Shown piece after piece: positions 31,762-50,170 of a DNA stretch of 64,000 nucleotides (positions within the stretch are counted from its first letter, which is position 1; the number at the start of each line of letters is the position of its first letter). This stretch comes from a virus (taxonomy: Duplodnaviria > Caudoviricetes). Under the pieces are notes generated by a model. The model ran no database searches, had not been told where the DNA came from, and saw only the letters and a list, made by a program, of their open reading frames with translations. The translations under genes were made by a program, and so were the position numbers. The stretch is from the IMG/VR virus record IMGVR_UViG_3300028454_001166, positions 1-64,000 of that record; one strand, written 5' to 3'.

Positions 31762-33580
31762 GAGCATAATCATTCGCCCGCAACCGGGGCCGCAGGAGCG
31801 GTTTCTCGCTACGAGCGCTGATATTGCAATCTATGGCGGGAGCGCGGGCGGTGGAAAGGCACAGCCCCTTGACGAGCCCGTTCTGACGCCTTATGGCTTC
31901 TGGCCGATGCGGAGTATCCGCGTCGGGGTTCAGGTTTTAGCTCCGGACGGCTCTCGTGCTACAGTTATTCAGGTCCATCCGCAGGGTGTGGTTCCGGTTT
32001 ATCGCGTCAGCTTGTACGGGAACGCCAGTACCCGGTGTACAGCGGAACACCTGTGGAAGGTTTACTACCGTTCGGATTGGGCGATAAAAACGACACGAGA
32101 GCTGATCAAACTTCTGGGTTCGGGGGAGCCTATCTACGTTCCGGTGTACAGTGGTTCCCGGTGGACTTCCCGGAGGCGGATAGAATCCATCGAGTCGTGC
32201 GGCGAGACCGAGTGCCAGTGCATCACGCTGGATTCCCCCGATGGATTGTATGTGACGAAGGATTTCATCGTCACGCATAACTCCTACGGATTGCTTCTGA
32301 CCTTTCTCCGGTACAAGAATGAGCCGGGTTTCACTGCTACGATATTCCGTCAGAACTACAATCAGATCTTCGCGCCCGGTGGTTTGTGGGATGAAGCCGA
32401 GAAAATCTACGGGCGCATCCCCGGAGCCGAGAAAAAGACAATGGATGGCGCTTGGCAGTTTCGTGGGAAAGACGGGCGGATTCTTAGTAAGATCAAGTTT
32501 GCGCACATCGAACGGGATGATGCTGTACATAAGTGGCAGGGCTCACAGATAGCCGAAATTGGCTGGGATGAGCTCACCCATTTTACAAAGGCAGAGTTCT
32601 TTTATATGCTCTCCCGTAACCGTAGTACCTGCGGTGTGAAGCCCTTCGTCCGTGCGACTTGCAACCCGGACGCAAACTCATGGGTGGCGGAGTTCATCGA
32701 TTGGTGGATCGACCCGGATACCGGGTATCCCATCCAAGAACGAAGCGGGGTCAAGCGGTGGTTCATTCGTCGTGATGAACAGCTTTTCTGGGCCGACCGG
32801 AAACAGGATTTGTGGGCGGAGTTTGATCTTCAAACCCCGGAGGAGAAGCAAGAGCCCAAGTCTGTCACGTTTATTGCGTCGTCCATCTATGACAACAAGG
32901 AGCTGTTGCGGGTCAACCCGAGCTACCTTGCAAACTTGAAAGCCCTATCCGTCGTGGAGCGCGAACGGCTCCTGTACGGCAACTGGAAGATCAAACCCTC
33001 CGCAGGGCTGTTCTTCAAACGGACGCAGCTCGGGTCCATACTCGAGGTTATCCCGGATGACATCCTTCAATGGGTGCGGTGCTGGGACTTAGCCGCGACC
33101 GAGAAAGAGGAAAACGGCGATGCAGCTTACACGGCGGGCGTGCTGATCGGGAAAAGGAAGAACGGCAGATACATAATCGCGGACGTCATAAACAAGCAGA
33201 TGAGTGCCGCGGATGTCCGGAAGACGATCTACCTGACAGCACAGGCAGACCGGGCGAAGTTCAAACGCATCCGGATCCGGTTACCTCAAGACCCGGGCCA
33301 AGCCGGGAAGGAACAGGCACAGTCCTATATAAAACTGCTCTCCGGTTTTGATGTGACCGCGGTTCCCGAGACCGGGAGCAAGGAGAGCCGGGCCGAGCCT
33401 ATGGCGGCTCAATGGCAAGCCGGAAACTTCGACATCGTACACGCGGATTGGAATGAACCATACCTTGAACAGCTTGAGAATTTCCCCGAGTGGAAGTTTA
33501 AGGACATGGTGGACGCTTCGGCTAACGGCTTCGCGGAAGTCGAGCTGAAAGCGATGTTTAATATCGATACACTACTTTGA
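31712..33580 (+). CDS. terL: Terminase large subunit containing a mini-intein
   Basis: PQPGPQERF, YGGSAGGGK|S, WDELTHF, RATCNP, WDLAAT, KDMVDAS. Confidence 0.93.
   Translation: MPTKKPVETPTETTSSESIIIRPQPGPQERFLATSADIAIYGGSAGGGKAQPLDEPVLTPYGFWPMRSIRVGVQVLAPDGSRATVIQVHPQGVVPVYRVSLYGNASTRCTAEHLWKVYYRSDWAIKTTRELIKLLGSGEPIYVPVYSGSRWTSRRRIESIESCGETECQCITLDSPDGLYVTKDFIVTHNSYGLLLTFLRYKNEPGFTATIFRQNYNQIFAPGGLWDEAEKIYGRIPGAEKKTMDGAWQFRGKDGRILSKIKFAHIERDDAVHKWQGSQIAEIGWDELTHFTKAEFFYMLSRNRSTCGVKPFVRATCNPDANSWVAEFIDWWIDPDTGYPIQERSGVKRWFIRRDEQLFWADRKQDLWAEFDLQTPEEKQEPKSVTFIASSIYDNKELLRVNPSYLANLKALSVVERERLLYGNWKIKPSAGLFFKRTQLGSILEVIPDDILQWVRCWDLAATEKEENGDAAYTAGVLIGKRKNGRYIIADVINKQMSAADVRKTIYLTAQADRAKFKRIRIRLPQDPGQAGKEQAQSYIKLLSGFDVTAVPETGSKESRAEPMAAQWQAGNFDIVHADWNEPYLEQLENFPEWKFKDMVDASANGFAEVELKAMFNIDTLL
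31859..32281 (+). mobile_element. 141-aa mini-intein (Ala-start, class 3-like) in the TerL Walker A
   Basis: GK|AQPLD...CTAEHLW...ECQCI...VTHN|S; no endonuclease domain. Confidence 0.9.
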
Positions 33581-33629: not shown

Positions 33630-36485
33630 ATGGCGATGGACACGCGCGGGTATAAAAATCTCCTGCGGAAACAAACGGGAAAAGCTGTGCGTCCTGTCCG
33701 TTATGATGGGTATGTAAACCTCATCAACCGTTACGGGACCTCAAAAGATATAGACGAGCAGTACTTCTTTTCTCCGGAGCCGGATGTGCCGGATGATGAA
33801 CTGGAGCTGTTTTACGAAGGAAACGGGCTGTTCGCAAAGATCATCGATACCCCCGCTGAGGAAGCCGTGAAGCACGGCTTTGAGTTGGAAGATCTGAACG
33901 ACGATGAAATCAAAAACTTCTACGAATCCGCTCTGGATGAGCTGGATTGGGAAGAAGTGTGCATGACCTGCATTAAATGGGCGCGTCTTTATGGCGGGAG
34001 CCTCGCGGTCATGCTGATCAACGATGGCCGCGGGCTTGAAGAACCGCTCGATTGGGATTCTATCGAGTCCATCGACGATATTGTTGTCTACGACCGGTCG
34101 CTGATCGTTCCGGACCAGTCCAGCATCTATAAGTACGAGAAGGACAACCCGTTCGGCACAAGAGGCAGTCGCCTCGGAACACCCGAATGGTACGAGATAA
34201 ACAGCACAAACGGGAACTTCCGGGTTCACGACAGCCGGGTTCTCGCGTTCCGAAATGGCGTGCTTCCGCAGAGAGCAACACACCAGAACTACCAGCTCTG
34301 GGGCATTCCGGAATATGTGCGGATCAACCGAGCGATCCGAAATGCGGAGGTTGCGCACGAGAGCGCTCCGAAGATGCTCTCGAAGTCCGTCCAGCCCGTG
34401 TACAAGATGAAGAATCTGTCTGAGCTGCTGGCGACCACGGATGGCGAGGACAAGGTTCTGCGGAGGCTCCGTTTGATCGATATGGCGCGGAGCTTCCTGA
34501 ATTCCATTACCATCGACCAAGAAGGCGAAGACTACAGTTTCGCCTCCTTTGCGTTTAACGGAGTCGATCAGGTTATCACCTCCTCGTGCAACTGGCTTTC
34601 CGCGCTGACGTCCATTCCGCAGACTATCCTGTTTGGGCGGTCGCCCGCGGGCATGAATGCGACCGGAGACGCCGACCTCGAAAACTACTACAACTATGTG
34701 GAACGGATTCAGAAGCGGATGGTTCGGTCGAATCTCCGGTATCTGTTGTCCGTGATATTTACCGCGGGTCTGCATACCGGCGAGATCGATCATATTCCCG
34801 AGTTCAGCATCAAGTTCTCCCCGTTGTGGTCCATGACTGAATCCGAGCAGGTTGCGCTTGATTTGCAGAAAGCTCAGGTTGAGTCCGCGCGTGCGCAGAC
34901 GGCGTCCACATACATTCAAAATCAGGTTATCGATCCCGGCGAAGTCCGGAAGAGCCTCGCGGAATCGGACGAGTTCGACATCGAGACGATGCTGGACGAT
35001 TACACCGAGGAGGAACTTGAAGAGAACGCTCCAAAGGGCGAAGAGGGCGGGATGCCCGGTGAAGGTGGTTTGCCCGGTATGCCTCCCATGGGTGGTGCGC
35101 CGGACGGTGGCGGTATGCTTCCCATGGGTGGTGATCCCGGGTCGGGGCAGGAGGCCCCGGCACAGCCCGCACAGGCCGCTTCTGAGCCCGTTTCCGAGAG
35201 CGGGGAAGAAGGATACGCCCTGCAAGGAAACAGCCCTGAAACCGCCCCTGAAGCGACCAAGCTGCCTCAAGACCAGCTCGAGGAAGACCCGGATCATGAA
35301 GATGCGGAAAACATGGATGATGAGGACGAAGGGGCAGATAAAATCATATCTCGCCACGGCAAACCGGACTACGAGGCTCCGGTTCCCGCGGGAGAGGCTT
35401 CTTCATGGCTCGTCCAAGACCTCGACCCTCTCATGACGAACAACCCGGACACATCTTCTCCCGATTGGACCGATGATGAGATCAAACGCAGAATCCGTTC
35501 TGTGGGTGTTCTGGTAGTTGATCAGTTCGGGAAGATCCTCACTGGTGTGCGTAAGGGCGGAAGCGGTGAGAACTACGGACTGCTTGGCGGTCCCGGTGGC
35601 CACGTTGAGCCGGGGGAATCCCTCGAAGACGCGGCTATCCGTGAAACCTATGAGGAGTTCGGGATCGTCCCGAAAGATCTGATGTTCATTTCCCTCGGTC
35701 GCTACGAAGAGGACAGTGGGATGATCCCTGCCATCTTTCTTTGCACGGAGTGGGCCGGAAGGATCTACCCGGTAGACGGGGAGATGGAGAATATCCGGTT
35801 CCGGACTATAGACGACATCGAAACACACAAGTTGTTCGGGCCGTTCGAATCTTCTCTGGAAATACTCGAAAAAGAGTTGACTTCCGAGGATGAAGATGGT
35901 AATATAGTGATGGATGAATTCGTGGAGAGCGACCATCCCAGAGATGAAGACGGACGGTTTTCCAAGAATTCCACATCCGGTGCTAAGAGCGCTTCACCAA
36001 GCGGCGGGAAGAGCTCGACGAAATATGCTGAAATTGACGATGATGATGAAGAATATAATCCAGATCTTGATGGACCGGGGGAAGAGGCCAAACGAGAGAA
36101 AGAGCATGCAATAAGCTACTATAAAGCCGTTAGGCGTCGGCACGGTGATGTCAAGAAGATCGCAAGGAATACCGGATTTCCCGAGCAAGTGATCGATAGA
36201 ATTCGTGAACATGTTTTCATGAAGAAGCACGATCTGGGAGACGATAAAATGAAACGCTTTTCCCCGGATTATGATATGGCACAGTCATGGCAGCGGTTAG
36301 TGAAGGGAAAAAACATTCAACCCCATGACGTCACCCTTTTGAAGCATGAACAAAAAGAGTACGAGCTGATGGATTCGGGACTATCTCAGGATAAAGCCCA
36401 CGCGTTAGCGACCCGAGAATTTGATTATCAAGGAGAGGTGGAAAAATACAATGGTAAAAGTCAAAAACATAACAAAGACACCTGA
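33630..36485 (+). CDS. Portal protein (DUF1073-like) fused to a Nudix hydrolase and a C-terminal toxin-like domain
   Basis: WARLYGG, IPQTILFGRSPAGMNATGD.DLENYY; Nudix box 35598-35666 GHVEPGESLEDAAIRETYEEFG; HPRDEDGRF; C-terminal PDYDMAQSWQRL...HEQKE...AH. Confidence 0.88.
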   Translation: MAMDTRGYKNLLRKQTGKAVRPVRYDGYVNLINRYGTSKDIDEQYFFSPEPDVPDDELELFYEGNGLFAKIIDTPAEEAVKHGFELEDLNDDEIKNFYESALDELDWEEVCMTCIKWARLYGGSLAVMLINDGRGLEEPLDWDSIESIDDIVVYDRSLIVPDQSSIYKYEKDNPFGTRGSRLGTPEWYEINSTNGNFRVHDSRVLAFRNGVLPQRATHQNYQLWGIPEYVRINRAIRNAEVAHESAPKMLSKSVQPVYKMKNLSELLATTDGEDKVLRRLRLIDMARSFLNSITIDQEGEDYSFASFAFNGVDQVITSSCNWLSALTSIPQTILFGRSPAGMNATGDADLENYYNYVERIQKRMVRSNLRYLLSVIFTAGLHTGEIDHIPEFSIKFSPLWSMTESEQVALDLQKAQVESARAQTASTYIQNQVIDPGEVRKSLAESDEFDIETMLDDYTEEELEENAPKGEEGGMPGEGGLPGMPPMGGAPDGGGMLPMGGDPGSGQEAPAQPAQAASEPVSESGEEGYALQGNSPETAPEATKLPQDQLEEDPDHEDAENMDDEDEGADKIISRHGKPDYEAPVPAGEASSWLVQDLDPLMTNNPDTSSPDWTDDEIKRRIRSVGVLVVDQFGKILTGVRKGGSGENYGLLGGPGGHVEPGESLEDAAIRETYEEFGIVPKDLMFISLGRYEEDSGMIPAIFLCTEWAGRIYPVDGEMENIRFRTIDDIETHKLFGPFESSLEILEKELTSEDEDGNIVMDEFVESDHPRDEDGRFSKNSTSGAKSASPSGGKSSTKYAEIDDDDEEYNPDLDGPGEEAKREKEHAISYYKAVRRRHGDVKKIARNTGFPEQVIDRIREHVFMKKHDLGDDKMKRFSPDYDMAQSWQRLVKGKNIQPHDVTLLKHEQKEYELMDSGLSQDKAHALATREFDYQGEVEKYNGKSQKHNKDT
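35877..35905 (+). promoter_or_regulatory. Promoter embedded in portal CDS ahead of the toxin domain
   Basis: TTGACT-17-TAATAT with TG extension. Confidence 0.7.
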
Positions 36486-36706: not shown

Positions 36707-36734
36707 AAAAAAGGACGGGGGCCCGTCCTTTTTT
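36707..36734. terminator. Bidirectional terminator
   Basis: AAAAAAGGACGGG-GG-CCCGTCCTTTTTT. Confidence 0.8.
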
Positions 36735-36753
36735 CATGCCTTCGGAGGACATT

Positions 36754-37341
36754 GTGGGAAAAGTCGATGAATATATAAAGCGGAGGAGAATCCGGCTTCT
36801 TTCCCGGAACGGAGAAACACCTTCATTCTCAGATCGAGTAACGGCTTTCAAGGCCCGTCGCGCAGCTCGGCTCGACGTACGGAATAAAGAACTTGAAATG
36901 CTGAAAAATGGGTTGACTTTCTCCAAATATAATGGTAACATTGCAATGGATGAATTCGTGGAAGGCGACCATCCACGGGATGAGAACGGGCAATTCGCTA
37001 AAGCGAATAGCTCCGAGGCTTCAAGCGAGTCGGGAGCTGAAACGGTAAAACCGCAACCCACGACCCCATCTGCAAAAGAGATCCGGTCCCGTTTGATCGG
37101 GCAAAAAACGCAGGACGGGCAAACGGTAAAGTCGGTGAGCGACCACGCAGTACAAAGGGTTCAGGAACGGAAGATCGGTTTTGATACAATCGAGAATTTG
37201 TTCCAATCCGGTAACGTTCGGCCCGGACACACACCGAACACGATTTGCTATGAAACCGATAAGCACAGAGTTGTTTTCGACAAAAACAACGGCAAAATAG
37301 TAACCGTGATGCACCGGGGCAATAGAGGAGGCAAGAAATAA
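36754..37341 (+). CDS. Leader-bearing protein with C-terminal DUF4258/BECR-like putative RNase toxin
   Basis: GGAGG then GTG; two RRxxRL leaders; HPRDENGQF; SDHAVQRVQERKI...VVFDKNNGKIVTV. Confidence 0.7.
   Translation: MGKVDEYIKRRRIRLLSRNGETPSFSDRVTAFKARRAARLDVRNKELEMLKNGLTFSKYNGNIAMDEFVEGDHPRDENGQFAKANSSEASSESGAETVKPQPTTPSAKEIRSRLIGQKTQDGQTVKSVSDHAVQRVQERKIGFDTIENLFQSGNVRPGHTPNTICYETDKHRVVFDKNNGKIVTVMHRGNRGGKK
36913..36941 (+). promoter_or_regulatory. Promoter embedded in CDS ahead of the toxin domain
   Basis: TTGACT-17-TAACAT with TG extension. Confidence 0.65.
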
Positions 37342-37601
37342 TGGACACGAAGGGCTTTCTTGATCTGCTGAATCAAGAACAAAATGATTTCATCCTCGAT
37401 GAGTTTTCCATGACGCAGGATCAGCTCCTCGGCCTTTCCGATGAAGGCCTCGACGAGCTCTACGAAGAGCTGGCAGACATTGAGGTTGAGGAGACGATGA
37501 AAGCCGAAGAAACGGGCGCAGCTCTTTCGGACAGAGGCCGGATTGCTTCTGAGATCGTCACTGTTTGGGGCAACGCCTACGCCGAGATAGACGAGGAGTG
37601 A
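37341..37601 (+). CDS. Acidic putative immunity protein
   Basis: TAATG coupling to a basic toxin; very acidic 86 aa; terminator follows. Confidence 0.7.
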   Translation: MDTKGFLDLLNQEQNDFILDEFSMTQDQLLGLSDEGLDELYEELADIEVEETMKAEETGAALSDRGRIASEIVTVWGNAYAEIDEE

Positions 37602-37621
37602 ACCCGAAAACAAAATACCTG

Positions 37622-37645
37622 AAGGACGGATCCCCGTCCTTTTTT
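37622..37645 (+). terminator. Intrinsic terminator
   Basis: AAGGACGG-ATCC-CCGTCCTT-TTTT, same stem as 36707. Confidence 0.8.
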
Positions 37646-37695
37646 CGTGCCCATGTTTGAGAGCCGCGTAGGGGCTTATATGGAGGCGTTTTAAC

Positions 37696-38652
37696 GTGAA
37701 CGAAAAGATACCCGCCCAACTGAAAAACGCGACTGACAAAGCCCCCACGAAGGTCAGAAGCCGCGTCCGGGCAAAAGGGACGCTCCTGTACCCGGATTCA
37801 TCCGAACGGGAGTACGCTTCGCTGGCTTTGAAGCACGCCCGGATGTACGGCGACCTGTTAAAAGAATACCTGCCGGAGATCGAAACGATTCTCCGTGAAA
37901 CCGCGAGGACGGATTCCAAGGATTACCACGATGATGCGAAAATCCTTGATTTCTCCGAGCGGTTTTCTCGTACCATCCGGAAGATGGAAAAAGAGCTGGC
38001 CGAAAAGCTGGACGATTTCGACACGGAGTACTTCATCAAGAAGGTGGCGAAACGGGCAAACGGGAGCAACACCCGCCAGTGGTTGCAGCTGATAAAGAAA
38101 ACCTACGGGATCGATCTTGACGGTCACTACTACAACAAAGGAACGTGGGCGGATATGATCGACAGATGGGCCGCGGAAAACGTCGGCTATGTGAAGTCAA
38201 TTCCGCAGGATTCTCTGGCTACACTTCGCCAGATCGTCCAGAACGGGTACTACGACGGCTGGGGGGTCATTAAGACCCGGAACGAGATCATGAAGGCTTT
38301 CGGGGTTTCCAAGAAAAAAGCAAAGATGCTGGCCGCGGATCAAATGGGTTCCTTGTGTGCGCAAATAACCCGGAAGAAGCAAACGGACGCCGGGTGCAAA
38401 CGGTATCGATGGAAAGCCCGAAACGACAACCGTGTTCGGGATGCGCACAGGCAGTACAACGGGAAAATCTTCTCATGGGACAACCCGCCGCCCGCGTGGT
38501 ACATGACCAAGACGAAGGGGAAGGTCTTCACCGGGAGGCATTGTCATCCCGGCGAGGATTACTGTTGCCGGTGCATAGCGATACCGATCTTCGATTCGGA
38601 CACGCTTCAACTGCCCGTGAAGAGCGGATACGAGGAGACCGGACAAACGTGA
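37696..38652 (+). CDS. Head morphogenesis protein (MuF / SPP1 gp7 family), short form
   Basis: A.DQMG...YRW...DNRVRDAH...GKIFSWD.PP...HPGEDYCCRC. Confidence 0.92.
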   Translation: MNEKIPAQLKNATDKAPTKVRSRVRAKGTLLYPDSSEREYASLALKHARMYGDLLKEYLPEIETILRETARTDSKDYHDDAKILDFSERFSRTIRKMEKELAEKLDDFDTEYFIKKVAKRANGSNTRQWLQLIKKTYGIDLDGHYYNKGTWADMIDRWAAENVGYVKSIPQDSLATLRQIVQNGYYDGWGVIKTRNEIMKAFGVSKKKAKMLAADQMGSLCAQITRKKQTDAGCKRYRWKARNDNRVRDAHRQYNGKIFSWDNPPPAWYMTKTKGKVFTGRHCHPGEDYCCRCIAIPIFDSDTLQLPVKSGYEETGQT

Positions 38653-38669
38653 GGAAGGGAGCAATTGGA

Positions 38670-39515
38670 ATGAATAAAGTACGCGCTTTCCAAGGGCGTC
38701 GATATAAGCGGCTCCTCGCAAGGATGGATGCCAACACTGACAAAGGAAAATGGATCACAACCGAAAACAATCACAAAGTCCATCTGAACGAGAACGGACA
38801 ACCAGATATGGGCAACCCTCACGTGATCGCTGCGATGGGTGGTAGCGAGTCCTCAGTACAGGTAAGTGATCTCAGTAAGCGGGTTGAGGGACTTAAGAAG
38901 ATGAAAAAGACCGAACGGCAACAGGAGCTTGCGAGTATTCTCGGTGATATGCCGGTGGGTTCTCAGATTACAGTTAAGAACCCGGGGCTTCCTGATCAAG
39001 TCATAACGAAAAAGGACGCGGAAACCTTCGAGCTTAAGACCACGATGTTTGGTGCACCATCCGTTCACGATTCTTCACTCTTCGCATTGTCTCACGGTTT
39101 GTCTAATGATAAGAGCAATGCGTATTCGTTCGAAGGCTCCGGCACAATGCAATCTCAGGCGAAGGCGGAAAGTGGCGTTAATCCCAACGCTAAAACCCCC
39201 TCCAATGTATCATCTTCAAGTTCAAGTGGGGGTGGGTCTACAGTGCCCCCCGATGCAGATGCTCTTGCTAAGACAAAGGCTCAAAAAGCCGCTGAAAAAG
39301 CTAAGACTGCGGCCATGCTCAAAAAAGCACAAGCCGCGGTAGCTAAAAAAGAAAAGATCTCACAGATTGATAAGGAAATCGAGCAGCTGGAACACGAGAT
39401 GTATAAGGCCCAGCATTACGGGAATACCGAGATCGGGGATTGGGATCTGTCCCACGAACTTGAAATGAAAATCCATAATCTTGAGGAGCAGAAAAAGAAG
39501 CTCACAGGGAAGTAA
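38670..39515 (+). CDS. Leader-bearing putative capsid-cargo protein with C-terminal coiled coil
   Basis: MNKVRAFQGRRYKRLLARMD..GKWITT..HLNENGQPDMGNP. Confidence 0.8.
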   Translation: MNKVRAFQGRRYKRLLARMDANTDKGKWITTENNHKVHLNENGQPDMGNPHVIAAMGGSESSVQVSDLSKRVEGLKKMKKTERQQELASILGDMPVGSQITVKNPGLPDQVITKKDAETFELKTTMFGAPSVHDSSLFALSHGLSNDKSNAYSFEGSGTMQSQAKAESGVNPNAKTPSNVSSSSSSGGGSTVPPDADALAKTKAQKAAEKAKTAAMLKKAQAAVAKKEKISQIDKEIEQLEHEMYKAQHYGNTEIGDWDLSHELEMKIHNLEEQKKKLTGK

Positions 39516-39537
39516 AAGTTAAAGCGAGGCATTTTTG

Positions 39538-42500
39538 ATGAATAAAACGGATGCGTACCGTAACCGCCGGTATAAGCGGCTTCTCGCAAGAATGGATGAA
39601 GTGGATGGCCATTTCGACGACGAGGGGCATTGGGTCACAACCCACGAAACGAAACGGCACATACACATAAACGAGAACGGGGTTCCTGATAAGGGCAACC
39701 CCTATATTATTGCCAAGATGACCGGGACGAAACCGAAACTCAGCGGCGAATACCGGAAAAAATCGCTGCAGGAGAGTTTCGGTAAAGGGAATACCGGTAA
39801 GGCAGTGCATTCGTTGAAGAGCCTTCCCGAAGGATCGACGATCAAGATGGCAAACGGAACGGAGTACACAAAGACCGGAAGCGGCTTTGTCAGTTCCAAG
39901 AGTAAAACGGGTGGTAAACAGACCCCGCAAGCTCTGGCGAAAATCCTTGATGGTCATACGAAGGCCGGTAAGAACTTCGAGGTCAATCCTTCCGACATTG
40001 GCGGGGCTGTCGAAGCGGGGAAAAACACGGGAGCCCCGAAGCCCGGACAGGGTGCTGAGTCCGAGGCTCCGAGTGCTTCTACGTCAGAATCGGTGCCGGA
40101 AACCGCATCAGCATCGTCCCCGGAGATCGATGCGCTTAACACGGTAATCGATCAATGGGGCGCGGGCAATCAGGTCCCCGCAGTAACCACATTGCAAGCT
40201 CTCACGGGTTTAGAAGACGGGACGAAAATCTTAGTTGACGGGTTTACCTTTGAAAAGCAGTCTGAAATCAGCGCGCTTGGGGCAGGGAAGGTCACTTCCT
40301 TTAAGAACACGGACACGGGCGAGGTCTTTAGTAAGGGTACGTTTAAGGCAATCCTGAAAAGCTATGCAGAGGAAGGTCAGCACGATATAGAGGTGCAAGC
40401 GCCCGGTCAATCGACGCCCGCCTCGGCTGAGGCCGCACCTGCTCCGGATGAGGTGGCCCCGGTTGAAACGGCTTCGACTTCTCCTGAAGTAACCAAATTC
40501 AACGACATTCTTTCAGGGTGGGCTGGCCACTACAGCGATGGGACACTTACAGAGGACGATATTGCCGCCGCAAATGCTTTGAAGGATGGCACGATTATCT
40601 CCGTTAACGGAAAAGATACCTACAAAAAGGTTACCGAACACTCCATGTACGGCGACTATCCGTGGTTTGAAAACTTAGAAACCGGGAAATGGTCGAATGT
40701 ACCCGCGCTGAAAAAAATCGTGGGCGGGGATGACGTACAGGCTGTACAGGTGAAAGATCCCGCAAATGATACAACAGTTTCTGCGCCAGCTTCTGAACAA
40801 GAGCCTACGCCGACGTCGAGTGCCGAGCCTTCTGCCGAGCAACCGAGTTCTTCTTCCGGTGGTAAGACGATGAAGGACCTGACAGAGTCCTTGAAAAAGT
40901 ATCCCCCGACCATGGAGGGGGCGAATAAGTTCTGGAATGAAGTCAATAGCACCTTCGATAACGCCCCTGACGGAACTGAGATAACCTTTCCTGATGAAGA
41001 CGATGGAAAATGGATCAAGGAAACCCACGGGAGCCTGACGCAATGGGTAAACCTCGCTTCCGGCGATACGATGGATAACAGTGAGATGTCGGCGGCTTTC
41101 TTGGATTCCGACTTTGGCAAGGATCTCGATAACATTTCTGCCGGAATAACCTATAAAGAACCTACCGGCGCGGGGACGCCGGGTTCAAGCTCGAGCGGTT
41201 CAAGTGGTTTAGCCTCGCAGGATTATTCGGGCCAAAAAGAAGCCCTTAGCGATCTGATCAAAAACGTGCCCGATGCGAGCATTGCCGCCTATGAAACGGT
41301 GTTGGATGAATTCCCAGAGGGCACCATCATCAAGGTTGGCGGAAAAACGTATGAAAAAATTCCGTCCGGGGATTGGGGTGATCCAGATACAGGGTTGCCG
41401 CTTGGCGAGTCTTGGGATGTGGGCTACGAGCTGAAGCACTATAACCCTCAACACACCTTAGACATTTCGATACCCGGAGAAAACACCGCCGCGTCTTCCA
41501 CCGGCAATGCGAATACACCTACTACGAGTTCTGACCCGGCGCAGTATTCGGCGTCTCTTTCAGGGGTAAAAAGCGCTGTAGATAAACTGAAACAAGGGAA
41601 ATTCGTCCATCCGGCAGAGTTCAAAAAGGCGTGTAAGTCAATGAAAGACGGCGATGGAATCGTCACGAACGGAAAAACCTATATCAAGGGTACAGATTCG
41701 TCCGGAAATCCGGTGTTCCACCCTTCTGATTCCCCACAGCACACTTACAGTTCTACCGGCATGGTGGACATCATGGCATACCAGATCGGTTTGCAAAAAG
41801 CCGGTCTCTCAAACGGGGTTTCGTTCAAATCCGGATCGGATCAATCCAGCTCAGGAAGTACAGCCGGTGCTTCACCCAGCACGGCAGCTCCCACGGCAAC
41901 ACCGAGCGTGGCCGCAAAAGACACGCAGAAATCAATCAAAAATGCTAAGACCAAAGCCGCCGTCGCTTCGGCTCTGGACGCGCTTCCCGTGGGAACGAAG
42001 ATCCACATGAAGAACCAAGGGGAAACCGTGTTCACAAAAACGGAGCACGGTTTCTCAAAAGAGTCTAAGTTCTGGGGCGGGACCATTCACACCCTTACCG
42101 ATGACGTGGTGAAATATGTTCACGGGAAGAATAAATACGCCGCGCCCTTTGCTATCGAAGATACTTCTGGCGGAACAACCGATTTCTCGGACGGTTCAAG
42201 CTATAAAGCCCCGGCGCATTCGTCTACCGCGTCTTTGCAAAGCCAGTCTTCCTCCTCCGCCTCGTCCGCTTCATCTTCCGCATCAAGCCCGAAACCGAGT
42301 GCTTGGAACGGGCTAAAAGCAAAAGTCCAACATGCCGCCGAAGCGTTCACCCAAGCCCGGAAGAACGCGGCCCATTGGGATAAAGGGGGCGGAATGGCAA
42401 CCGATAAACTGCTGAGACCGGTTACAGGAGCAGTATGGAAAAAACTAACTGAGGGGCAGAAGAAGAGTCTGGTTGCCTATACCGGGAGCGCTTATGCGAG

Positions 42501-43023
42501 CATAAATGACGCATTGAGAAACGGAACCGGTAAACGAGCTGCAGACATAAACAACATGACAACGGCTATCGATCAGTGCGAAGCGCCCACCGATATATGG
42601 CTTCAGAGAGGATGTTCGACATACGCATTGAGTAAGCTGTTCAACACCGATACGATGACCCTTGAAAAAGCGCGTTCAAAAGGATCCCAAGCTATTCTTG
42701 ACCTTTTGTCCACCTCGGCAAACTACGGTCAGGATAAGGGTTTCATGTCATGCGGGTCTTCGAAAGGGAAGGGCTTTTCCTCTAACGATGTGATTTTGAA
42801 CGTGTACTGTCCGAAAGGCACGAAGATGATGTATGCGGAACCGTTCTCCCACTATGGCGCGACAAGTGCCGGAGCTACGTGGAACGGCTCGTCTGGTACA
42901 ACTCATGTTTCAGGCGAACACGAAACAATCCTGCAAAGGGGGACAATGCTCCGTCCCACAAAGGTCACGGTGTCTAACGGTAAGATATACGTGGATGTAG
43001 ACGTAATCGGTCAAAACTACTAA
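39538..43023 (+). CDS. Large leader-bearing protein with 7 internal repeats and a C-terminal VIP2/Alt-like ADP-ribosyltransferase
   Basis: Leader as above; YTGSAYASINDALR, WLQRG, KGFMSCGS, VYCPKGTK, GEHETILQRGT (R-S-ExE). Confidence 0.88.
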   Translation: MNKTDAYRNRRYKRLLARMDEVDGHFDDEGHWVTTHETKRHIHINENGVPDKGNPYIIAKMTGTKPKLSGEYRKKSLQESFGKGNTGKAVHSLKSLPEGSTIKMANGTEYTKTGSGFVSSKSKTGGKQTPQALAKILDGHTKAGKNFEVNPSDIGGAVEAGKNTGAPKPGQGAESEAPSASTSESVPETASASSPEIDALNTVIDQWGAGNQVPAVTTLQALTGLEDGTKILVDGFTFEKQSEISALGAGKVTSFKNTDTGEVFSKGTFKAILKSYAEEGQHDIEVQAPGQSTPASAEAAPAPDEVAPVETASTSPEVTKFNDILSGWAGHYSDGTLTEDDIAAANALKDGTIISVNGKDTYKKVTEHSMYGDYPWFENLETGKWSNVPALKKIVGGDDVQAVQVKDPANDTTVSAPASEQEPTPTSSAEPSAEQPSSSSGGKTMKDLTESLKKYPPTMEGANKFWNEVNSTFDNAPDGTEITFPDEDDGKWIKETHGSLTQWVNLASGDTMDNSEMSAAFLDSDFGKDLDNISAGITYKEPTGAGTPGSSSSGSSGLASQDYSGQKEALSDLIKNVPDASIAAYETVLDEFPEGTIIKVGGKTYEKIPSGDWGDPDTGLPLGESWDVGYELKHYNPQHTLDISIPGENTAASSTGNANTPTTSSDPAQYSASLSGVKSAVDKLKQGKFVHPAEFKKACKSMKDGDGIVTNGKTYIKGTDSSGNPVFHPSDSPQHTYSSTGMVDIMAYQIGLQKAGLSNGVSFKSGSDQSSSGSTAGASPSTAAPTATPSVAAKDTQKSIKNAKTKAAVASALDALPVGTKIHMKNQGETVFTKTEHGFSKESKFWGGTIHTLTDDVVKYVHGKNKYAAPFAIEDTSGGTTDFSDGSSYKAPAHSSTASLQSQSSSSASSASSSASSPKPSAWNGLKAKVQHAAEAFTQARKNAAHWDKGGGMATDKLLRPVTGAVWKKLTEGQKKSLVAYTGSAYASINDALRNGTGKRAADINNMTTAIDQCEAPTDIWLQRGCSTYALSKLFNTDTMTLEKARSKGSQAILDLLSTSANYGQDKGFMSCGSSKGKGFSSNDVILNVYCPKGTKMMYAEPFSHYGATSAGATWNGSSGTTHVSGEHETILQRGTMLRPTKVTVSNGKIYVDVDVIGQNY

Positions 43024-43050
43024 CCTCGAAATTAAACCGGTTATTACTGC

Positions 43051-43079
43051 TTGACTTTTTTCATGCTTTATGGTAATAT
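43051..43079 (+). promoter_or_regulatory. Promoter for the antidote genes
   Basis: TTGACT-17-TAATAT with TG extension. Confidence 0.8.
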
Positions 43080-43110
43080 GGGTTTACCTAATATGAGGGG
43101 GTAACATTTC

Positions 43111-43365
43111 ATGGCGAAAGAAGGAAAGATGAAGCCTCGTGATTGGGATGAGGGATTCGGTGATAACGCTGAACACGGCGCGGAAGAAACGCCTTGCACC
43201 GATTGCGTTTTTCGTCGAATTGTCACAAGCGCAGATGGTAGGGTGATAGATACCGGAAAAGGATCTACCTGCAAGGCCTATCCCGAGCTCAAACCGCTCG
43301 AGGTGATGATGTATGGGGCCGAGTGCCCGAAATATCAGAAGGATAAACACGAAAAGAACCTCTGA
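43111..43365 (+). CDS. Small Cys-rich protein, possible immunity/partner of the ART
   Basis: CTDC...CKAYP.LKP...CPKY; between ART and ARH. Confidence 0.7.
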   Translation: MAKEGKMKPRDWDEGFGDNAEHGAEETPCTDCVFRRIVTSADGRVIDTGKGSTCKAYPELKPLEVMMYGAECPKYQKDKHEKNL

Positions 43366-43410
43366 GGCAAAGAGGATACCGAAAATGAACCCAAACAGGG
43401 AGGCAAACGC

Positions 43411-44331
43411 ATGATAGGAGCCATCATCGGTGACATCGTCGGCTCGGTCTACGAGTTCGACAATCATCGATCAAAGATTTTTCCGCTTTTTGATTCTCGC
43501 TGTGCGCTGACAGACGACAGCATAATGACGCTGGCCATCGCAAGAGCGCTCACGATCTACGGGCAGCAGGGGACGTATGAAAACCTGCAATCTGAGACGA
43601 TCCGGCAGATGCAGAGGGTCGGTCGATGCTACCCCGATTGCGGTTGGGGCGGGCGTTTCGGAAGGTGGATCTTCTCAGACGATCCGAAGCCATACAACAG
43701 CTTCGGGAATGGCGCGGCTATGCGGGTCAGCGCGATTGTCGCCGCGGCTCCAAACCTCGAAACGGCGAAGCTGTGGACGAAGCTGGTAACCGAGATTTCG
43801 CACAACCACCCGGAAGGGATCAAAGGCGCACTTGCGACGGTTGAGCTTGCGTGGATAGCAAAAGAGGCCAGAAAACGCACGAATCCAAAATGCAAAGATC
43901 GCATTTTCAAAGCCGCTTTGAAATACTACCCGGAAAAAGACTTCGCCGGAGATTTCAACCTTGATGCGATCCGCCCCAAATACCGATTCAACGAAACCTG
44001 CCAAGAGACGGTTCCGCAAGCCATCGAAGCGTTCCTTGAATCGAGAGATTTTGAGGACGCTATTCGAAATGCGATCTCAATCGGCGGGGACAGCGACACG
44101 TTAGCCGCAATTACAGGGACTATCGCCGAGGCCTTCTACGGGGTGAAGCAGGAGCATAAAGCAAAAGCGCTCAAATACTTCGACAGCCTCCAATACGGAA
44201 TCTACAGTGAGTTTTCAGCTATGTACAACGATCTGCCCGTATTCGGAGAGCTGTCCGGAGAAATCGCATTCCGAACAACCGAAGACGGATCCATCGGCGG
44301 GATTTCTACGATGGGAGACGTCATTGGGTAA
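43411..44331 (+). CDS. ADP-ribosylglycohydrolase (DraG/ARH family)
   Basis: GAIIGDIVGS.YEF, TDDS, SFGNGAAMR, SHNHPEG, GGDSDTLAAI. Confidence 0.93.
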   Translation: MIGAIIGDIVGSVYEFDNHRSKIFPLFDSRCALTDDSIMTLAIARALTIYGQQGTYENLQSETIRQMQRVGRCYPDCGWGGRFGRWIFSDDPKPYNSFGNGAAMRVSAIVAAAPNLETAKLWTKLVTEISHNHPEGIKGALATVELAWIAKEARKRTNPKCKDRIFKAALKYYPEKDFAGDFNLDAIRPKYRFNETCQETVPQAIEAFLESRDFEDAIRNAISIGGDSDTLAAITGTIAEAFYGVKQEHKAKALKYFDSLQYGIYSEFSAMYNDLPVFGELSGEIAFRTTEDGSIGGISTMGDVIG

Positions 44332-44350
44332 TCCCGCGAACTGAATACCG

Positions 44351-44379
44351 AAGACGCAGAAATGCGTCTTTTCTTATTT
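44351..44379 (+). terminator. Intrinsic terminator
   Basis: AAGACGCA-GAAA-TGCGTCTT-TTCTTATTT. Confidence 0.75.
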
Positions 44380-44402
44380 CCCCGTTGAAAGGAGGGGTCG
44401 GC

Positions 44403-46070
44403 ATAAAAGGCAACAACATAAGTCGTTTCAAACAGCGACGCGCTGAACGTCTAATACAAAGAGCGTTTAATGCGGATGCCCGTTTTGACGAGGACAAGGG
44501 AAAATGGGTGACGACCCACGAAAAGAAGCGTCGAATCCACATAAACGAAAACGGAATCCCGGATAAAGGGAACCCCTTTGTCATAGCCAAGATGACCGGG
44601 TCTAAGCCCAAGGTCAGCACTGGCTACAAAAAGAAGAATCTTCACGATCTTCTTGTAAAGGGCAAATCCGACAAAGCTGTAAAAGCTCTGAAAGCCTTGG
44701 AAGAAGGTTCCACTATCACGCTGGAAAACGGCACACAGTACACGAAGACGGGGAGCGGCTTTGTCAGCTCGAAGGGAAAAACTGGCGGCAAACAAACCCC
44801 GCAAGCCATAGCGAAGATCCTCCATGGTCACTCCGGAGGCGGGAAGGACTTTACGGTTGGTGATCCCAAACCCGATGCAGTTCCCGAGGCAAAAGCGCCT
44901 AAAACGTCAACCGTCCCAACCTACCCGAAGACATACAGCAAGGGTCAGCTTGGCGCGTCCCATAGTTCTCATATGGGAGACGATCCGGTAGACATTCCGA
45001 AAGGTCCGCCTAAAACCTATAAATCCGACTCCGGCCACGAATTCGTGGACGCGGGTAATATTCTATCAAGCGTCAAATCAACCGATACGACGAAAGACAT
45101 CATCGAGAAGCAGGGATTCAGCGGTTTGCCTCGACGGGTATCAAAAGAGGAATTTCAAAAGATTGCAAAACAGAGTGGTTTCGTTTCGAAGCGAACATAT
45201 AGCGCGGCCTCTCAGGAGCTCGCAGACGAATATCGAAAACAGCTCTACGAAGGGGACTTTTTCGTGGACTGCACCGTAGGCGGTGCACAATACGGGCAAG
45301 GAATGTATTGTGCCGCCGATTACACCGGCAACGGATACAACGCGGGCATCGACGAAGAGATGAAGCACTACCAAAAATTGAATGTCGCGCGGCAAGCAGA
45401 TAACGCTTTCATCTTAGGGGCTTCAACCGAAGATCTGAACAAGGCCATAGACGAGTGTAAGGCCGCGGGTAAGTACAGCTGGAACGGAATGGGTTACAAG
45501 CACATGACCCCTGCCGAGCATGAGGCGTTTAAGAAGTTTGTAACGCATCAGAAGCTCAGCCCAAAAGAAGAAGAGGCCATGGCAAAGCACGGCGGTTTTT
45601 CGGATGTTCAGTTCGTGCTGTCCACTGATGTCGGGTGGAGCAACTATGGAACGGTTTCCGTAGGAAGCACTAAGAGCGCTACCAAGAACAAGTTCCTCTC
45701 GACATATAAGGGGTACAAAAAGACCGAAGTGGTCACGTTGGACCCGAGCGCGAAGATTATTAGTTTCAATGCTCTAAAGGCGAAATACAAGGCCTATAAA
45801 GGTACGAAACCGAAAGATCTGGGTGCCTTCGCCGCGGCTATGGGCTACGATGCGATCAACGCCTACGGCCATGGTAAATCCGGGTCCTACACCGTTATTC
45901 TCAACCGGACAAAATGTGTATTTATGGATCGGCCTATCAATGGCGACTCGGTAGATGAGCCGAAGGAATCCCGTATCAAGTTCATCCCCGGCAAGCATGG
46001 CCGGTTCCACGCATATCGGGACGGTCAATATCTGGGGTGGGTGGACACCTACGTCGGCGGTCAGAACTGA
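44403..46070 (+). CDS. Leader-bearing protein with C-terminal PARP-like/ART-PolyVal-like domain; ATA start
   Basis: AAAGGAGG 7 nt before ATA; ~130-aa N-terminus similar to the 39538 protein; YGQGMYCA...GYDAI...YTVILNR. Confidence 0.7.
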   Translation: MKGNNISRFKQRRAERLIQRAFNADARFDEDKGKWVTTHEKKRRIHINENGIPDKGNPFVIAKMTGSKPKVSTGYKKKNLHDLLVKGKSDKAVKALKALEEGSTITLENGTQYTKTGSGFVSSKGKTGGKQTPQAIAKILHGHSGGGKDFTVGDPKPDAVPEAKAPKTSTVPTYPKTYSKGQLGASHSSHMGDDPVDIPKGPPKTYKSDSGHEFVDAGNILSSVKSTDTTKDIIEKQGFSGLPRRVSKEEFQKIAKQSGFVSKRTYSAASQELADEYRKQLYEGDFFVDCTVGGAQYGQGMYCAADYTGNGYNAGIDEEMKHYQKLNVARQADNAFILGASTEDLNKAIDECKAAGKYSWNGMGYKHMTPAEHEAFKKFVTHQKLSPKEEEAMAKHGGFSDVQFVLSTDVGWSNYGTVSVGSTKSATKNKFLSTYKGYKKTEVVTLDPSAKIISFNALKAKYKAYKGTKPKDLGAFAAAMGYDAINAYGHGKSGSYTVILNRTKCVFMDRPINGDSVDEPKESRIKFIPGKHGRFHAYRDGQYLGWVDTYVGGQN

Positions 46071-46419: not shown

Positions 46420-46749
46420 ATGCCGGAGAAAGAAATGAGCGTCATTGAAACCATCTGCCAGCAGATGATTAAGTCTGCGGGGGATGTCATCGCGCTCGAG
46501 CAGGTTATATCTCGGCTGGAAGACCACAATAACGATAAGGTGTTGGAGCTGTTTGAACACCTGCAAATCTCCAATCTGGAAGCCCTGCAAACCTTGACAG
46601 TCGCCTTAACGGGTGAAATGCTGGAATCCCGGAAGACCGAAAACGATGATTCGGATGATGGCGGCGTCTTTGCGCCGGGGGAGCTCGATTGGAAAAAGAA
46701 AGCCGAGGTGATCGGCCACGGTGAAACGGAGGAAGAAGCCGATGAATAA
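46420..46749 (+). CDS. Hypothetical head-module protein
   Basis: GGAGG RBS; overlaps start of the DUF2213 gene. Confidence 0.7.
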   Translation: MPEKEMSVIETICQQMIKSAGDVIALEQVISRLEDHNNDKVLELFEHLQISNLEALQTLTVALTGEMLESRKTENDDSDDGGVFAPGELDWKKKAEVIGHGETEEEADE

Positions 46750-48583
46750 GACCATGCCTAAGCTGGTTCACGTCACACGGCTTGACAGTTTCCCCGTAAC
46801 CCGTGCAACGTACACGGATGAAGGTTATCTGTCCGACCGACCGATTCTGACGTCAACCGGAATCTTCGAGTACAAAAACAAAGATGGCTCGATCAGACGG
46901 GAGCTGAGGCTCCCGGAGGAAGTTTTTGACCCTGAAAGTCTTGAATCCTATAAAGGGAAGCCCATCGTGATAACACACGATGCCGGGCTTATTAACCGTG
47001 ACAATGTTCAGGAAAATCAGATAGGGACGATCCTCAGCGCCGGTGAGCGCGACGGGGATGATGTTCGGGCTGACATCATGATTCATGATACAAAGGCCCT
47101 GAAAAACTGTCGATTCAAGGAACTGTCGCTCGGTTACAACCTCGACCTTGAAGAGGAACCGGGAGAATGGGAAGGGCAGAAATATGATGCCATCCAGCGG
47201 AACATCCGCGTGAACCATCTTGCCGTTGTCAGGGAGGCAAGGGCGGGAGATCAGGCGCGGCTGAACATAGATAGCCGTTCCGATAACACAATCTTAACAG
47301 GAGGACATAGGACTATGGCCAAGAAGAAGACCCGCCGTAAATACAACAACGACGGCATCCTCAGCCCTGAACAGCTGCAGGAAGCAATCGCAAAGTATAA
47401 GGCGGAACAGGCGGCGCTTGCCGCTGAAAATCAGGACGAAGATCCTGATGAAGAGGCCGAGGAACTCGCAAAGACCGAGGTTGTAAACCCCGAGGCCGAT
47501 GTGCAGAAGAATGAGCTGAACAAGGATACGGACAAGCCGGTTCCTGCTCCGCAGAATACCGCGCCGCAGGTGCTCCCCCCGAAGAAGCCCGTGGCTCCGA
47601 GCATCCCGCTCCCGAGTCAGGACAGGCCCATTGAGGAGAAGCTCGACGCGGTGAAGCACAGACGCGATCTCCGCGACGAGAAGGGTGACCCCAAGGACCT
47701 TAATGAGGCCATGGAAAGCATCGCTGAATACGACGAGGAGCACGATTATTATCGTGACATCATCGACACCCTTCTCGCTGAACGTGACTTCGAAAAGGGT
47801 AAGAAGGCCGACTCTGCGCAGGAGCCCATCCCCGACACCGAGACCGCTGAAATCGGTGACAAGGGCAAGGAGAAAGACGAGGACTGTGTGGACAACAAGC
47901 TCGACTCCGAAGACGCTGACACCCCCTTCACCGATGAAGAAGAGGTAAAGGAAGACGACGAGGAAGACACCGACCCGTTTGGTGACGAGGACTTCGCTGA
48001 CGAAGATCTCACCGAAAACGAGGGTGAGGAAGAGGATCCGGCTTTTGCCGATTCTGACCTCGGCGACCCGGACTCCGCTGATCCCGATAACGAGGACGAC
48101 GATGACGAAGAGGCACTTCCCGACTACGATCTCACCGATCCCGACATCGACGATGCAGATGAGGAGGAGGAATCCTACCCGCGTCTGAATCAGGATTCTA
48201 TCGACCGGGCTGTTCGGAAAGAAGTGCAAAGACGGCTCGCCATCGCCAAGGTAGGCCAGCGGCTCAACATGGACGGTCTGGAAACCATGAGCCTCCGCAA
48301 AGCGAAGCGCATGGTCATTAAGAAGGTTTATCCTTCTGTCCGGCTCGACGGTAAGAGTGACGCCTACATCAACGGTATGTACAACTGCTGCGTAAAAGAG
48401 CTGAAGAAACACCCCCGGAAGGATACCGCCTACCAGAAGCGGCAGATGTTCAATAAGGTGTTCAACAAGGACTCTCAGGACTTCGATAACACCGATTCCG
48501 CGGCAACCGCGCGTGACAAGATGATCGAACGGCAGCTGGATCGCAAGCCGGAACGTCATAGCGTTCGTGCGGAAAAGAAATAA
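46742..48583 (+). CDS. DUF2213 putative prohead protease with acidic scaffold region
   Basis: GIFEY, ELRLPEEVF..SL.S..GKPI..H, ELSLGY, YDAIQRNIRVNHLAVV..ARAG. Confidence 0.9.
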   Translation: MNKTMPKLVHVTRLDSFPVTRATYTDEGYLSDRPILTSTGIFEYKNKDGSIRRELRLPEEVFDPESLESYKGKPIVITHDAGLINRDNVQENQIGTILSAGERDGDDVRADIMIHDTKALKNCRFKELSLGYNLDLEEEPGEWEGQKYDAIQRNIRVNHLAVVREARAGDQARLNIDSRSDNTILTGGHRTMAKKKTRRKYNNDGILSPEQLQEAIAKYKAEQAALAAENQDEDPDEEAEELAKTEVVNPEADVQKNELNKDTDKPVPAPQNTAPQVLPPKKPVAPSIPLPSQDRPIEEKLDAVKHRRDLRDEKGDPKDLNEAMESIAEYDEEHDYYRDIIDTLLAERDFEKGKKADSAQEPIPDTETAEIGDKGKEKDEDCVDNKLDSEDADTPFTDEEEVKEDDEEDTDPFGDEDFADEDLTENEGEEEDPAFADSDLGDPDSADPDNEDDDDEEALPDYDLTDPDIDDADEEEESYPRLNQDSIDRAVRKEVQRRLAIAKVGQRLNMDGLETMSLRKAKRMVIKKVYPSVRLDGKSDAYINGMYNCCVKELKKHPRKDTAYQKRQMFNKVFNKDSQDFDNTDSAATARDKMIERQLDRKPERHSVRAEKK

Positions 48584-49135: not shown

Positions 49136-50170
49136 ATGGCAAACAAGCACAGATCCTATGAGAAGGACGAGGCGAGAGCTCTTCGGGACTCTGGTATTGC
49201 GAAAGCGATCATCGCCTCTGAAGGCACTCGTTTCGACAGCGCTGAGGAAGCATCTGTTTTCTTCGCCCGTGAGCTGGATTTCGTCAAGAGCCAGTCCTAC
49301 GACGTTGAATACCCCGAACTGACCGCGCTGAACATCTTCCCGATCAGCACCGAAGCTGATGAGGGCGCGGAAACCATCACCTACTACACCTACGACAAGA
49401 AGGGCGTCGCCAAGATCATCGACAGCTATTCTACGGACCTTCCGAGAGCTGACGTGGATGGTACCCCCTCTGTCGCCAAGATCAAGTCTCTCGGTGCTTC
49501 CTACGGTTACTCCGCTCAGGAAATGAGAGCGTCCCGTCTCGCCGGTAAGGGGCTGGATGCCCGGAAAGCCGAGTCCGCAAGATGGGCTATCGACTCCGCG
49601 AACAACAAGATCGCGTGGGCCGGTGATACCGCTTCCGGTCTGATGGGCGTTCTTTCTGCGGGTCAGTCTATCCCGCTGTACACCATCCTCGCTGATGGTT
49701 CCGGTAAGACCAAGTGGACCGAAAAGGACCCCGACGCCATCCTTGACGACATCAACGGCATGGCGAAGCAGGTGGCCAGAACCACGAAGAACGTGGAACG
49801 CCCCGATACCCTCTGCGTCCCTGCCGATGTGTATATGCACATCGCAACCAAGAGAATCCCGCAGACCGCTACCTCCGTGCTGAACTACCTCCTCGAGAAC
49901 GCTCCGTACATCAAGGAGATCGTCAGCGCGGCTGAGCTGGATGCCGATTCCGTTGAGACCAACCCCTACGCCGCGGCTTCCGGTGGTCAGGGCGTCGCCT
50001 TCCTGTTCAAGAAGGACAAGAAGAAGCTCTCCCTCGAGAACCCGATGCCCTTCAACCAGTACACCGCCCAGACCAGAAATCTGGAAACCATCATCCCCTG
50101 CGAAGCCAGAACTGCGGGCGTCATCGTGTACTACCCCCTGTCCTGCCTGATCGCTATCGGCGTTTCCTAA
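49136..50170 (+). CDS. Major capsid protein (DUF2184 family)
   Basis: FFARELD, DLPRADV, YGYSAQE, GVIVYYPL; strong codon bias. Confidence 0.92.
   Translation: MANKHRSYEKDEARALRDSGIAKAIIASEGTRFDSAEEASVFFARELDFVKSQSYDVEYPELTALNIFPISTEADEGAETITYYTYDKKGVAKIIDSYSTDLPRADVDGTPSVAKIKSLGASYGYSAQEMRASRLAGKGLDARKAESARWAIDSANNKIAWAGDTASGLMGVLSAGQSIPLYTILADGSGKTKWTEKDPDAILDDINGMAKQVARTTKNVERPDTLCVPADVYMHIATKRIPQTATSVLNYLLENAPYIKEIVSAAELDADSVETNPYAAASGGQGVAFLFKKDKKKLSLENPMPFNQYTAQTRNLETIIPCEARTAGVIVYYPLSCLIAIGVS

Follow-up and report, generated by a model that had tools for sequence, protein, structure and literature searches.

The stretch of DNA analysed here, hereafter the window, comprises 64,000 nucleotides (positions 1 to 64,000) of the IMG/VR virus record IMGVR_UViG_3300028454_001166 (Duplodnaviria; Caudoviricetes), and our subject is a short arginine-rich leader shared by four of its open reading frames (ORFs), termed A to D, which we read as a probable capsid-loading tag. 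The region is a prophage head-morphogenesis block within a contig of more than 500 kb. The leaders, cores and junction motifs described below, ORFs A-D and the portal, MuF, ADP-ribosylglycohydrolase, protease-scaffold and capsid genes all lie on the plus strand. In order, small and large terminase subunits are followed by a 951-amino-acid portal (PF06381; 33630-36485) and ORF A (36754/36736-37341), then by an overlapping acidic 86-amino-acid ORF, a separate MuF-like head protein gene fused to no cargo (PF04233; 37696-38652), ORF B (38670-39515) and ORF C (39538-43023), then by a Cys-rich 84-amino-acid ORF, an ADP-ribosylglycohydrolase (PF03747; 43411-44331) and ORF D (44385 or 44403-46070), and finally by a 620-amino-acid fusion of a DUF2213 prohead protease to a scaffold (46721-48583; assigned by Pfam, PHROG and alignment), a cement protein and a T1-like major capsid protein (PF09950; 49136-50170). 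ORF C, at 1161 amino acids, ends in an ADP-ribosyltransferase domain (PF03496) and ORF A carries a DUF4258 toxin-like domain; by Pfam each of the window's cargo ORFs has at most one recognisable cargo domain, and these are mostly single-cargo proteins. The cargo domain of ORF D was modelled by AlphaFold2 (AF2) with a predicted local distance difference test (pLDDT) score of 48. The ADP-ribosylglycohydrolase downstream of the ADP-ribosyltransferase cargo is antidote-like, and the overlapping acidic ORF after DUF4258 may be a second such neighbour.

The preliminary description of this DNA counted five leader copies in the four ORFs, and we recover exactly these: two in ORF A (36763-36807 and 36838-36882, the second ending in R-L-D), one each in ORF B (38679-38729) and ORF C (39547-39597), both ending in R-M-D, and one in ORF D (44418-44462), where R-F-D lies eight residues further on. 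All were placed by motif scan, and a leader position-specific scoring matrix (PSSM), built from 88 of 89 cargo leaders (those with four upstream residues), gave 29 bits for the first copy in ORF A and 46, 44 and 22 bits for those in B, C and D. Given the best-supported starts (GTG 36754 after GGAGG for A, ATG 38670 for B, ATG 39538 for C, and either ATA 44403 after AGGAGG or TTG 44385 for D), the leader helix begins at residue 3-5 of each protein. The AGGAGG of ORF D is perfect and stands 7 nucleotides upstream of the in-frame ATA; the TTG, its sole canonical start, lacks a ribosome-binding site and stands immediately after a terminator-like hairpin. GC-rich hairpins with T-runs lie directly upstream of both ORF A (36707-36735) and ORF D (44350-44378), within the head operon.

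In six frames of the window the originally proposed leader pattern matches five times, always in ORFs A-D. Across the 4.3-Mb genome (open frames of at least 80 amino acids, 4.86 million residues) it matches six times, at these five leaders and in one Arg-rich, antisense-looking and likely non-coding frame. The genome assembly itself is large (4.3 Mb vs. 1.9-2.6 Mb in five same-genus genomes sampled) and may be mixed or unusually large. A block GxW[VI]TT...NENG.PD.GNP..IA.M had also been described downstream of the leader in three ORFs, and it is present in B, C and D, at the beta-meander cores discussed below (38745-38837 in B, conforming to GxWxTT...GNP...M; 39625-39720 in C; 44499-44594 in D; all three by alignment, the first two also by AF2 of the ORF C copy). 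The reported DNA similarity of B and C (38703 vs. 39571) likewise holds, as 28 nucleotides identical except at two synonymous positions, where chance would give 0 matches. In ORF A the place of the core is taken by an HPRD-type junction motif (36946-36996), which aligns with a motif of the portal C-terminal extension.

We built a profile from three N-termini and searched it against 1.84 billion representative proteins, obtaining 230 clusters at E ≤ 1e-3, 135 of them at E ≤ 1e-10. The module thus delineated, present in at least 230 clusters, has four parts: the Arg helix ([VI]xx[YF][RK]xRRxxR[LIM]x[AS][RK]), an x-Asp site (R-Φ-D, Φ being a hydrophobic residue), an acidic linker and, last, the core, a small beta-meander of the form GxWxTT...GNP. 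Among the best 150 proteins, whose sizes span 55-2042 amino acids, 118 have the start of the core in their first 45 residues, and 18 have 2-6 module copies. The conserved helix positions (-3, 0, 1, 3, 4, 7, 8 and 11) all fall in one 160-degree arc, with Arg at positions 3, 4 and 7 conserved at 96-100%, and the leader carries a charge of +5 to +7 directly ahead of the acidic linker. The W, T, G and GN positions of the core are invariant across 87 sequences, from which AF2 modelled the ORF C copy (pLDDT 80) as a helix at residues 3-24 that a linker joins to a meander of three strands, with a short helix after it. The Arg and Asp of R-Φ-D are nearly invariant throughout the family, even where another helix replaces the leader. 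No model in Pfam (LPD domains included), PHROGs or NCBIfam covers the module, the ESM Atlas gave no usable match, structure comparison with Foldseek on PDB and with VIA-align wide yielded no convincing counterpart of its fold (best Z 2.9), and a word-indexed homologue search with ORF D returned six close relatives only. A WW-like meander for the core and FlhB-type N-P autocleavage in the module were both considered and are unsupported.

Beyond the module the C-termini are unrelated. Those cargo domains that can be named are all toxin-like or effector-like, namely ADP-ribosyltransferases, Zeta toxin, Gln deamidase, an ATLF-like peptidase, DnaJ and DUF4258, and the cargo of most module proteins belongs to no known family. 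The family therefore combines a conserved N-terminal region with diverse C-terminal toxin domains, as is general for polymorphic toxins, and one short N-terminal peptide is common to otherwise unrelated head-region proteins, as in phage T4.

The genomic context of relatives was taken from IMG/VR loci only. In 19 of 21 such loci the module genes lie among genes for terminase large subunit, portal, protease-scaffold, cement and capsid proteins, all closely homologous to those in the window, and the module contigs belong to a head lineage with a T1-like capsid protein and a DUF2213 protease-scaffold. The nearest cultured relative, Faecalibacterium myophage FP_Brigit, has the same head genes and no module. 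Megablast of the region against cultured phages found no match, a scan of genome contigs found no relative, and the module was not found in 698 genomes, 300 from the host's family and 398 from its class. This head-module context and the unrelated cargo domains agree, circumstantially, with the capsid-loading role that had been suggested for the leader. We reject MuF as an obligatory carrier, because it is unfused here and was not detected in two cargo-rich contigs; Pfam finds it neither in ORFs A-D nor in nine internal-module relatives, its only copy in the window being the separate gene at 37696-38652. ORFs A-D are not MuF toxins.

The helix is separable from what follows it, preceding at least four downstream domains: the beta-meander, the HPRD motif as in ORF A, and two other conserved N-terminal domains. 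Tandem double leaders are frequent in related loci, again as in ORF A. Of seven portal-fused junction modules (two meander-type and five HPRD-type, the window and FP_Brigit portals included), none has the Arg helix, and of six free-standing HPRD ORFs four have it; since the portal becomes part of the head in any case, absence from portal-fused copies and presence in free-standing ones is as a loading tag predicts. The window's portal illustrates the former, its C-terminal extension holding an HPRD-type motif (35910-35960, by alignment) with no Arg leader before it.

The two kinds of alternative to the meander can be described further. The HPRD motif, [DE][FW].E..HPRDENG.F, replaces the beta-meander after some leaders and also occurs in portal extensions, where the portal-Nudix part meets the tip domain; besides the two window sites, it is found at L011:13963-14847, L013:14128-15174, L013:15693-16643 and in the FP_Brigit portal (L028:10725-13211). 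In other relatives the leader, often doubled, stands before a GHGNT.LP.GLC domain or an ARLAYGIAK..GI.TEGM domain (L005:4610-6085, L014:5119-6753, L093:3559-4860, L095:3400-5058 and others).

The preliminary description placed a cut at the Asp that follows the leader. The mature N-terminus of the capsid protein of phage TLS has been defined by Edman degradation and is preceded by Asp in the genome-encoded sequence (PMC11447400), and the T1 capsid protein gp47 was modelled from the residue equivalent to the TLS mature start (PMC11945409). In our capsid alignment with these proteins the TLS cleavage Asp is invariant; its counterpart in the capsid protein of the window is the Asp of R-F-D|S (residues 32-35; 49229-49240), the predicted maturation cleavage site there. 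Searched as R-[LMFIV]-D, the motif occurs seven times in 15 head-module proteins (5,968 residues): once each in A-D, at the leader end or just before the core, twice in the scaffold at conserved positions (R-L-D at residues 20 and 541), and once at the capsid site. A cut at the following Asp thus fits the alignment with the TLS cleavage Asp, the motif being limited to A-D, scaffold and capsid among these 15 proteins.

When the strict leader pattern was applied to the relatives, it repeatedly matched their scaffold, at the helix just after the protease domain. The leader match falls on the same alignment column in the L005, L006 and FP_Brigit scaffolds. We compared 42 cargo-less IMG/VR protease-scaffold relatives, defined as having no leader- or module-bearing gene upstream, with 23 cargo-bearing ones. 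The leader PSSM scored the post-protease helix at 26-34 bits in 26 of the 42 cargo-less relatives (median 28), far above the null from 1000 shuffles (99th percentile 2.8, maximum 11.2), vs. a median of 4.4 in the 23 cargo-bearing loci. By the strict pattern the helix is kept in 29 of 42 cargo-less vs. 1 of 23 cargo-bearing scaffolds, and in the window's scaffold this helix (at about residue 222) has lost its arginines. Acidity goes the other way: a 60-residue stretch with at least 33 Asp/Glu is present in 20 of 23 cargo-bearing vs. 1 of 42 cargo-less scaffolds (medians 38 and 24 Asp/Glu per 60 residues). The most acidic such stretch of the window's scaffold (47933-48112) has 36, and the scaffold of FP_Brigit, which has no cargo, has 17. 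Judged by these scores, the leader is a copy of the scaffold helix found in cargo-less relatives, which the preliminary description had not foreseen, and the match of leader to helix stands independently of the tree. The N-terminal propeptide of the capsid protein was rejected as the source of the leader (PSSM -12).

The interpretation that we favour, with a probability of roughly 0.6, is that the leader acts like the capsid-targeting sequence (CTS) of T4, as a tag for capsid loading, independent of MuF, that imitates the scaffold and is removed at R-Φ-D. The Arg-rich helix would serve as an address, copied from the helix just after the scaffold's protease domain, and tagged cargo would be built into the procapsid together with the scaffold core. 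Contact would most likely be made with the hyper-acidic scaffold stretch, the scaffold's own Arg helix having been lost in cargo-bearing phages. The DUF2213 prohead protease, as both candidate docking partner and candidate processing enzyme, would then cut after the Asp of R-Φ-D, at the same type of site as in the capsid protein, and the effector, whose N-terminal part would now be the acidic linker followed by the beta-meander, would be trapped in the head until ejected with the DNA. We infer binding partner, cleavage, packaging and injection each from sequence, and the partner from charge and co-variation only.

Several observations weigh against this interpretation. The leader had been described as N-terminal and is not strictly so, occurring also in tandem and inside polyvalent relatives; 17 leaders are internal to their protein, so an N-terminal position is not required. 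Among 156 strong cores, 51 have neither an RR-type leader nor either of two named alternative helices. The beta-meander, although the best-conserved element of the module and retained in internal and portal-fused copies, has no role in the favoured model; this is also where the earlier model, in part borne out, falls short, leaving the most conserved part of the module without a function. Seven R-Φ-D in 5,968 residues is about the chance expectation, and only the placement of the motif is therefore informative. The window's own scaffold has no leader match (PSSM -0.9 bits on the helix, -2.6 over the whole protein), and hhalign of the module against the scaffold profile was not significant (P 0.077). 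Finally, the raw-count associations of cargo with scaffold helix and acidity (Mann-Whitney p 1e-7 to 1e-10) are not phylogenetically independent. On the protease-domain tree 3-7 changes of the cargo trait suffice, and independent pairs provide only three well-supported contrasts, with sign tests at p 0.5-1; with so few changes and contrasts these tests are powerless. The docking on an acidic scaffold that had been put forward earlier is consistent with the association of cargo and hyper-acidic scaffold, on few independent contrasts.

In a different reading, the module is a processing junction and loading occurs otherwise: R-Φ-D with the meander or HPRD cassette would let the prohead protease separate effector units from each other or from the portal, the Arg helix being accessory. 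Polyvalent relatives do have as many as six modules set between their domains, and modules do occur in portal C-terminal extensions, where targeting would be needless, and the near-invariance of R-Φ-D when other helices replace the Arg helix also speaks for it. It does not say, however, why free-standing single-domain proteins need the helix, nor does it account for the copying from the scaffold helix, the absence from portal-tethered copies or the tandem duplication, and we consider it unlikely.

A second alternative is that the beta-meander or its substitutes are the true capsid-docking or ejection domain, and that the Arg helix is an autoinhibitory or charge-masking propeptide keeping toxins inactive or soluble until maturation. 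The core's invariant W, T, G and GN and its persistence in portal-fused and internal copies are as this would have it, and a leader of charge +5 to +7 could fold back on the acidic linker. The same leader, however, precedes three other, unrelated downstream domains and copies a scaffold helix, and for the core no relative in structure or sequence was detected that would suggest a binding function; we regard this alternative as distinctly unlikely.

An arginine-rich helix might instead bind nucleic acid, tethering the cargo to packaged DNA so that it leaves the head with the genome. One face of the helix presents four Arg and an aromatic residue, comparable to the Arg-rich face of motifs of the lambda N and Rev type. 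A DNA-binding head protein is also on record, SPP1 gp7 (cited in PMC5576092). The cargo must, however, enter the procapsid before the DNA does, the probable protease site at the tag's end would remove the tag before packaging, and the complementary pattern of scaffold acidity and scaffold-helix loss speaks for a protein as the partner, making a DNA tether improbable. That the shared 5' end is a recombination handle or a trace of recent duplication, with no function of its own, is very improbable: the 28 nearly identical nucleotides of B and C and the roughly 165 N-terminal residues common to C and D, which reach beyond the module, would suit it, but the amino-acid pattern is conserved across clusters sharing less than 50% identity, and purifying selection on the peptide is seen.

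The capsid-loading tag that we favour resembles several known systems. In T4 a CTS is present on the internal proteins IPII and IPIII and is removed by the prohead protease gp21 (PMC9958956). Both the CTS and the present leader are short N-terminal peptides on otherwise unrelated, non-essential head-internal proteins (head-internal location being presumed here); the head-internal proteins of T4 include an ADP-ribosyltransferase, Alt, as does the cargo here; and the present tag precedes a motif found also at the capsid maturation site, with cargo injection alongside the DNA likewise presumed. The differences are that the protease here is DUF2213 and the head T1-like, that the candidate cut falls after Asp whereas T4 gp21 cleaves after Glu, that sufficiency for targeting has been demonstrated experimentally in T4 only, and that the present tag, of about 18 residues, is helical and recognisable as a scaffold-helix copy, occurs in tandem as well as inside proteins, and has conserved adaptor domains after it. 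The likeness to the T4 CTS drawn here is one of role. In the scaffold C-terminus of P22, the protease C-terminus of HK97 and the cargo-loading peptides of encapsulins, a short peptide binding the assembling shell or core suffices to carry a passenger inside; those peptides are C-terminal and bind coat protein, whereas the tag here is N-terminal and is copied from an internal scaffold helix.

With MuF polymorphic toxins (Jamet et al. 2017, PMC5576092) the present family has in common variable C-terminal toxins, antidote-like neighbours, a place in the head module of Firmicutes (pro)phages and presumed travel in the capsid; it differs in that its conserved N-terminal part is not MuF, which has a gene of its own and is fused to no toxin here. 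Phage-type polyvalent proteins (Iyer et al. 2017, PMC5512222) are matched by those relatives that chain 2-6 effector units beside virion genes, some with a zincin-like (ATLF) peptidase. Here, in contrast, each unit is headed by a defined junction module matching no Pfam family, and the proposed processing enzyme is the prohead protease instead of a metallopeptidase within the polypeptide.

Some further features of the locus and its relatives were recorded. Many internal leader-plus-core modules of polyvalent relatives are preceded by a motif DS-A-FFAGEL-[ND]...YPE (L005:8879-11833; L017:9626-10114; P0039, P0040, P0052, P0055, P0066, P0077 and P0139), which is absent from ORFs A-D. It closely resembles the N-arm of this lineage's major capsid protein just after the predicted cleavage site (49256-49333, capsid residues 41-66), and may either mimic that arm or represent a processing element common to both. 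In the portal gene product, an intact Nudix domain (PF00293) and, at the C-terminus, a tip domain are fused to the portal part, an arrangement seen also in the FP_Brigit portal. The large terminase (31700-33580) has an insert of about 140 residues directly after the Walker A glycine-lysine, ending in THN and then Ser; it resembles a mini-intein and has no Pfam match. Within ORF C (39750-42400) there are about seven copies of a small domain, L..LP.GT.I...G..Y.K, with Ser/Thr/Pro/Ala-rich linkers between them, and ORF B (38950-39050) has one copy.

A more ambitious proposal, which we put forward only tentatively, is that the scaffold may have become a programmable cargo rack, its self-association helix copied to swappable effectors and its own copy given up, its acidic stretch expanded to hold them, and each effector released by the prohead protease at R-Φ-D. 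Were this true, any protein could be loaded into the heads of gut-Clostridia phages by means of no more than an 18-residue tag and a cleavage site, and the beta-meander, HPRD and other adaptors would form a second layer, acting for example in ejection through the tail.

How non-structural proteins enter phage heads is understood for very few phages, and even for T4 the mechanisms are still called mysterious (review, PMC9958956). The module described here offers a sequence-defined candidate tag, with an identifiable scaffold origin, a candidate partner and a candidate cut site anchored to a site measured in a relative, and hundreds of unannotated effector families in phages of the gut and rumen carry it. 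If the capsid-loading interpretation is correct, it would delimit a family of polymorphic effectors delivered in the capsid independently of MuF, make injected anti-host proteins annotatable from sequence, and provide a tool for loading proteins into capsids.

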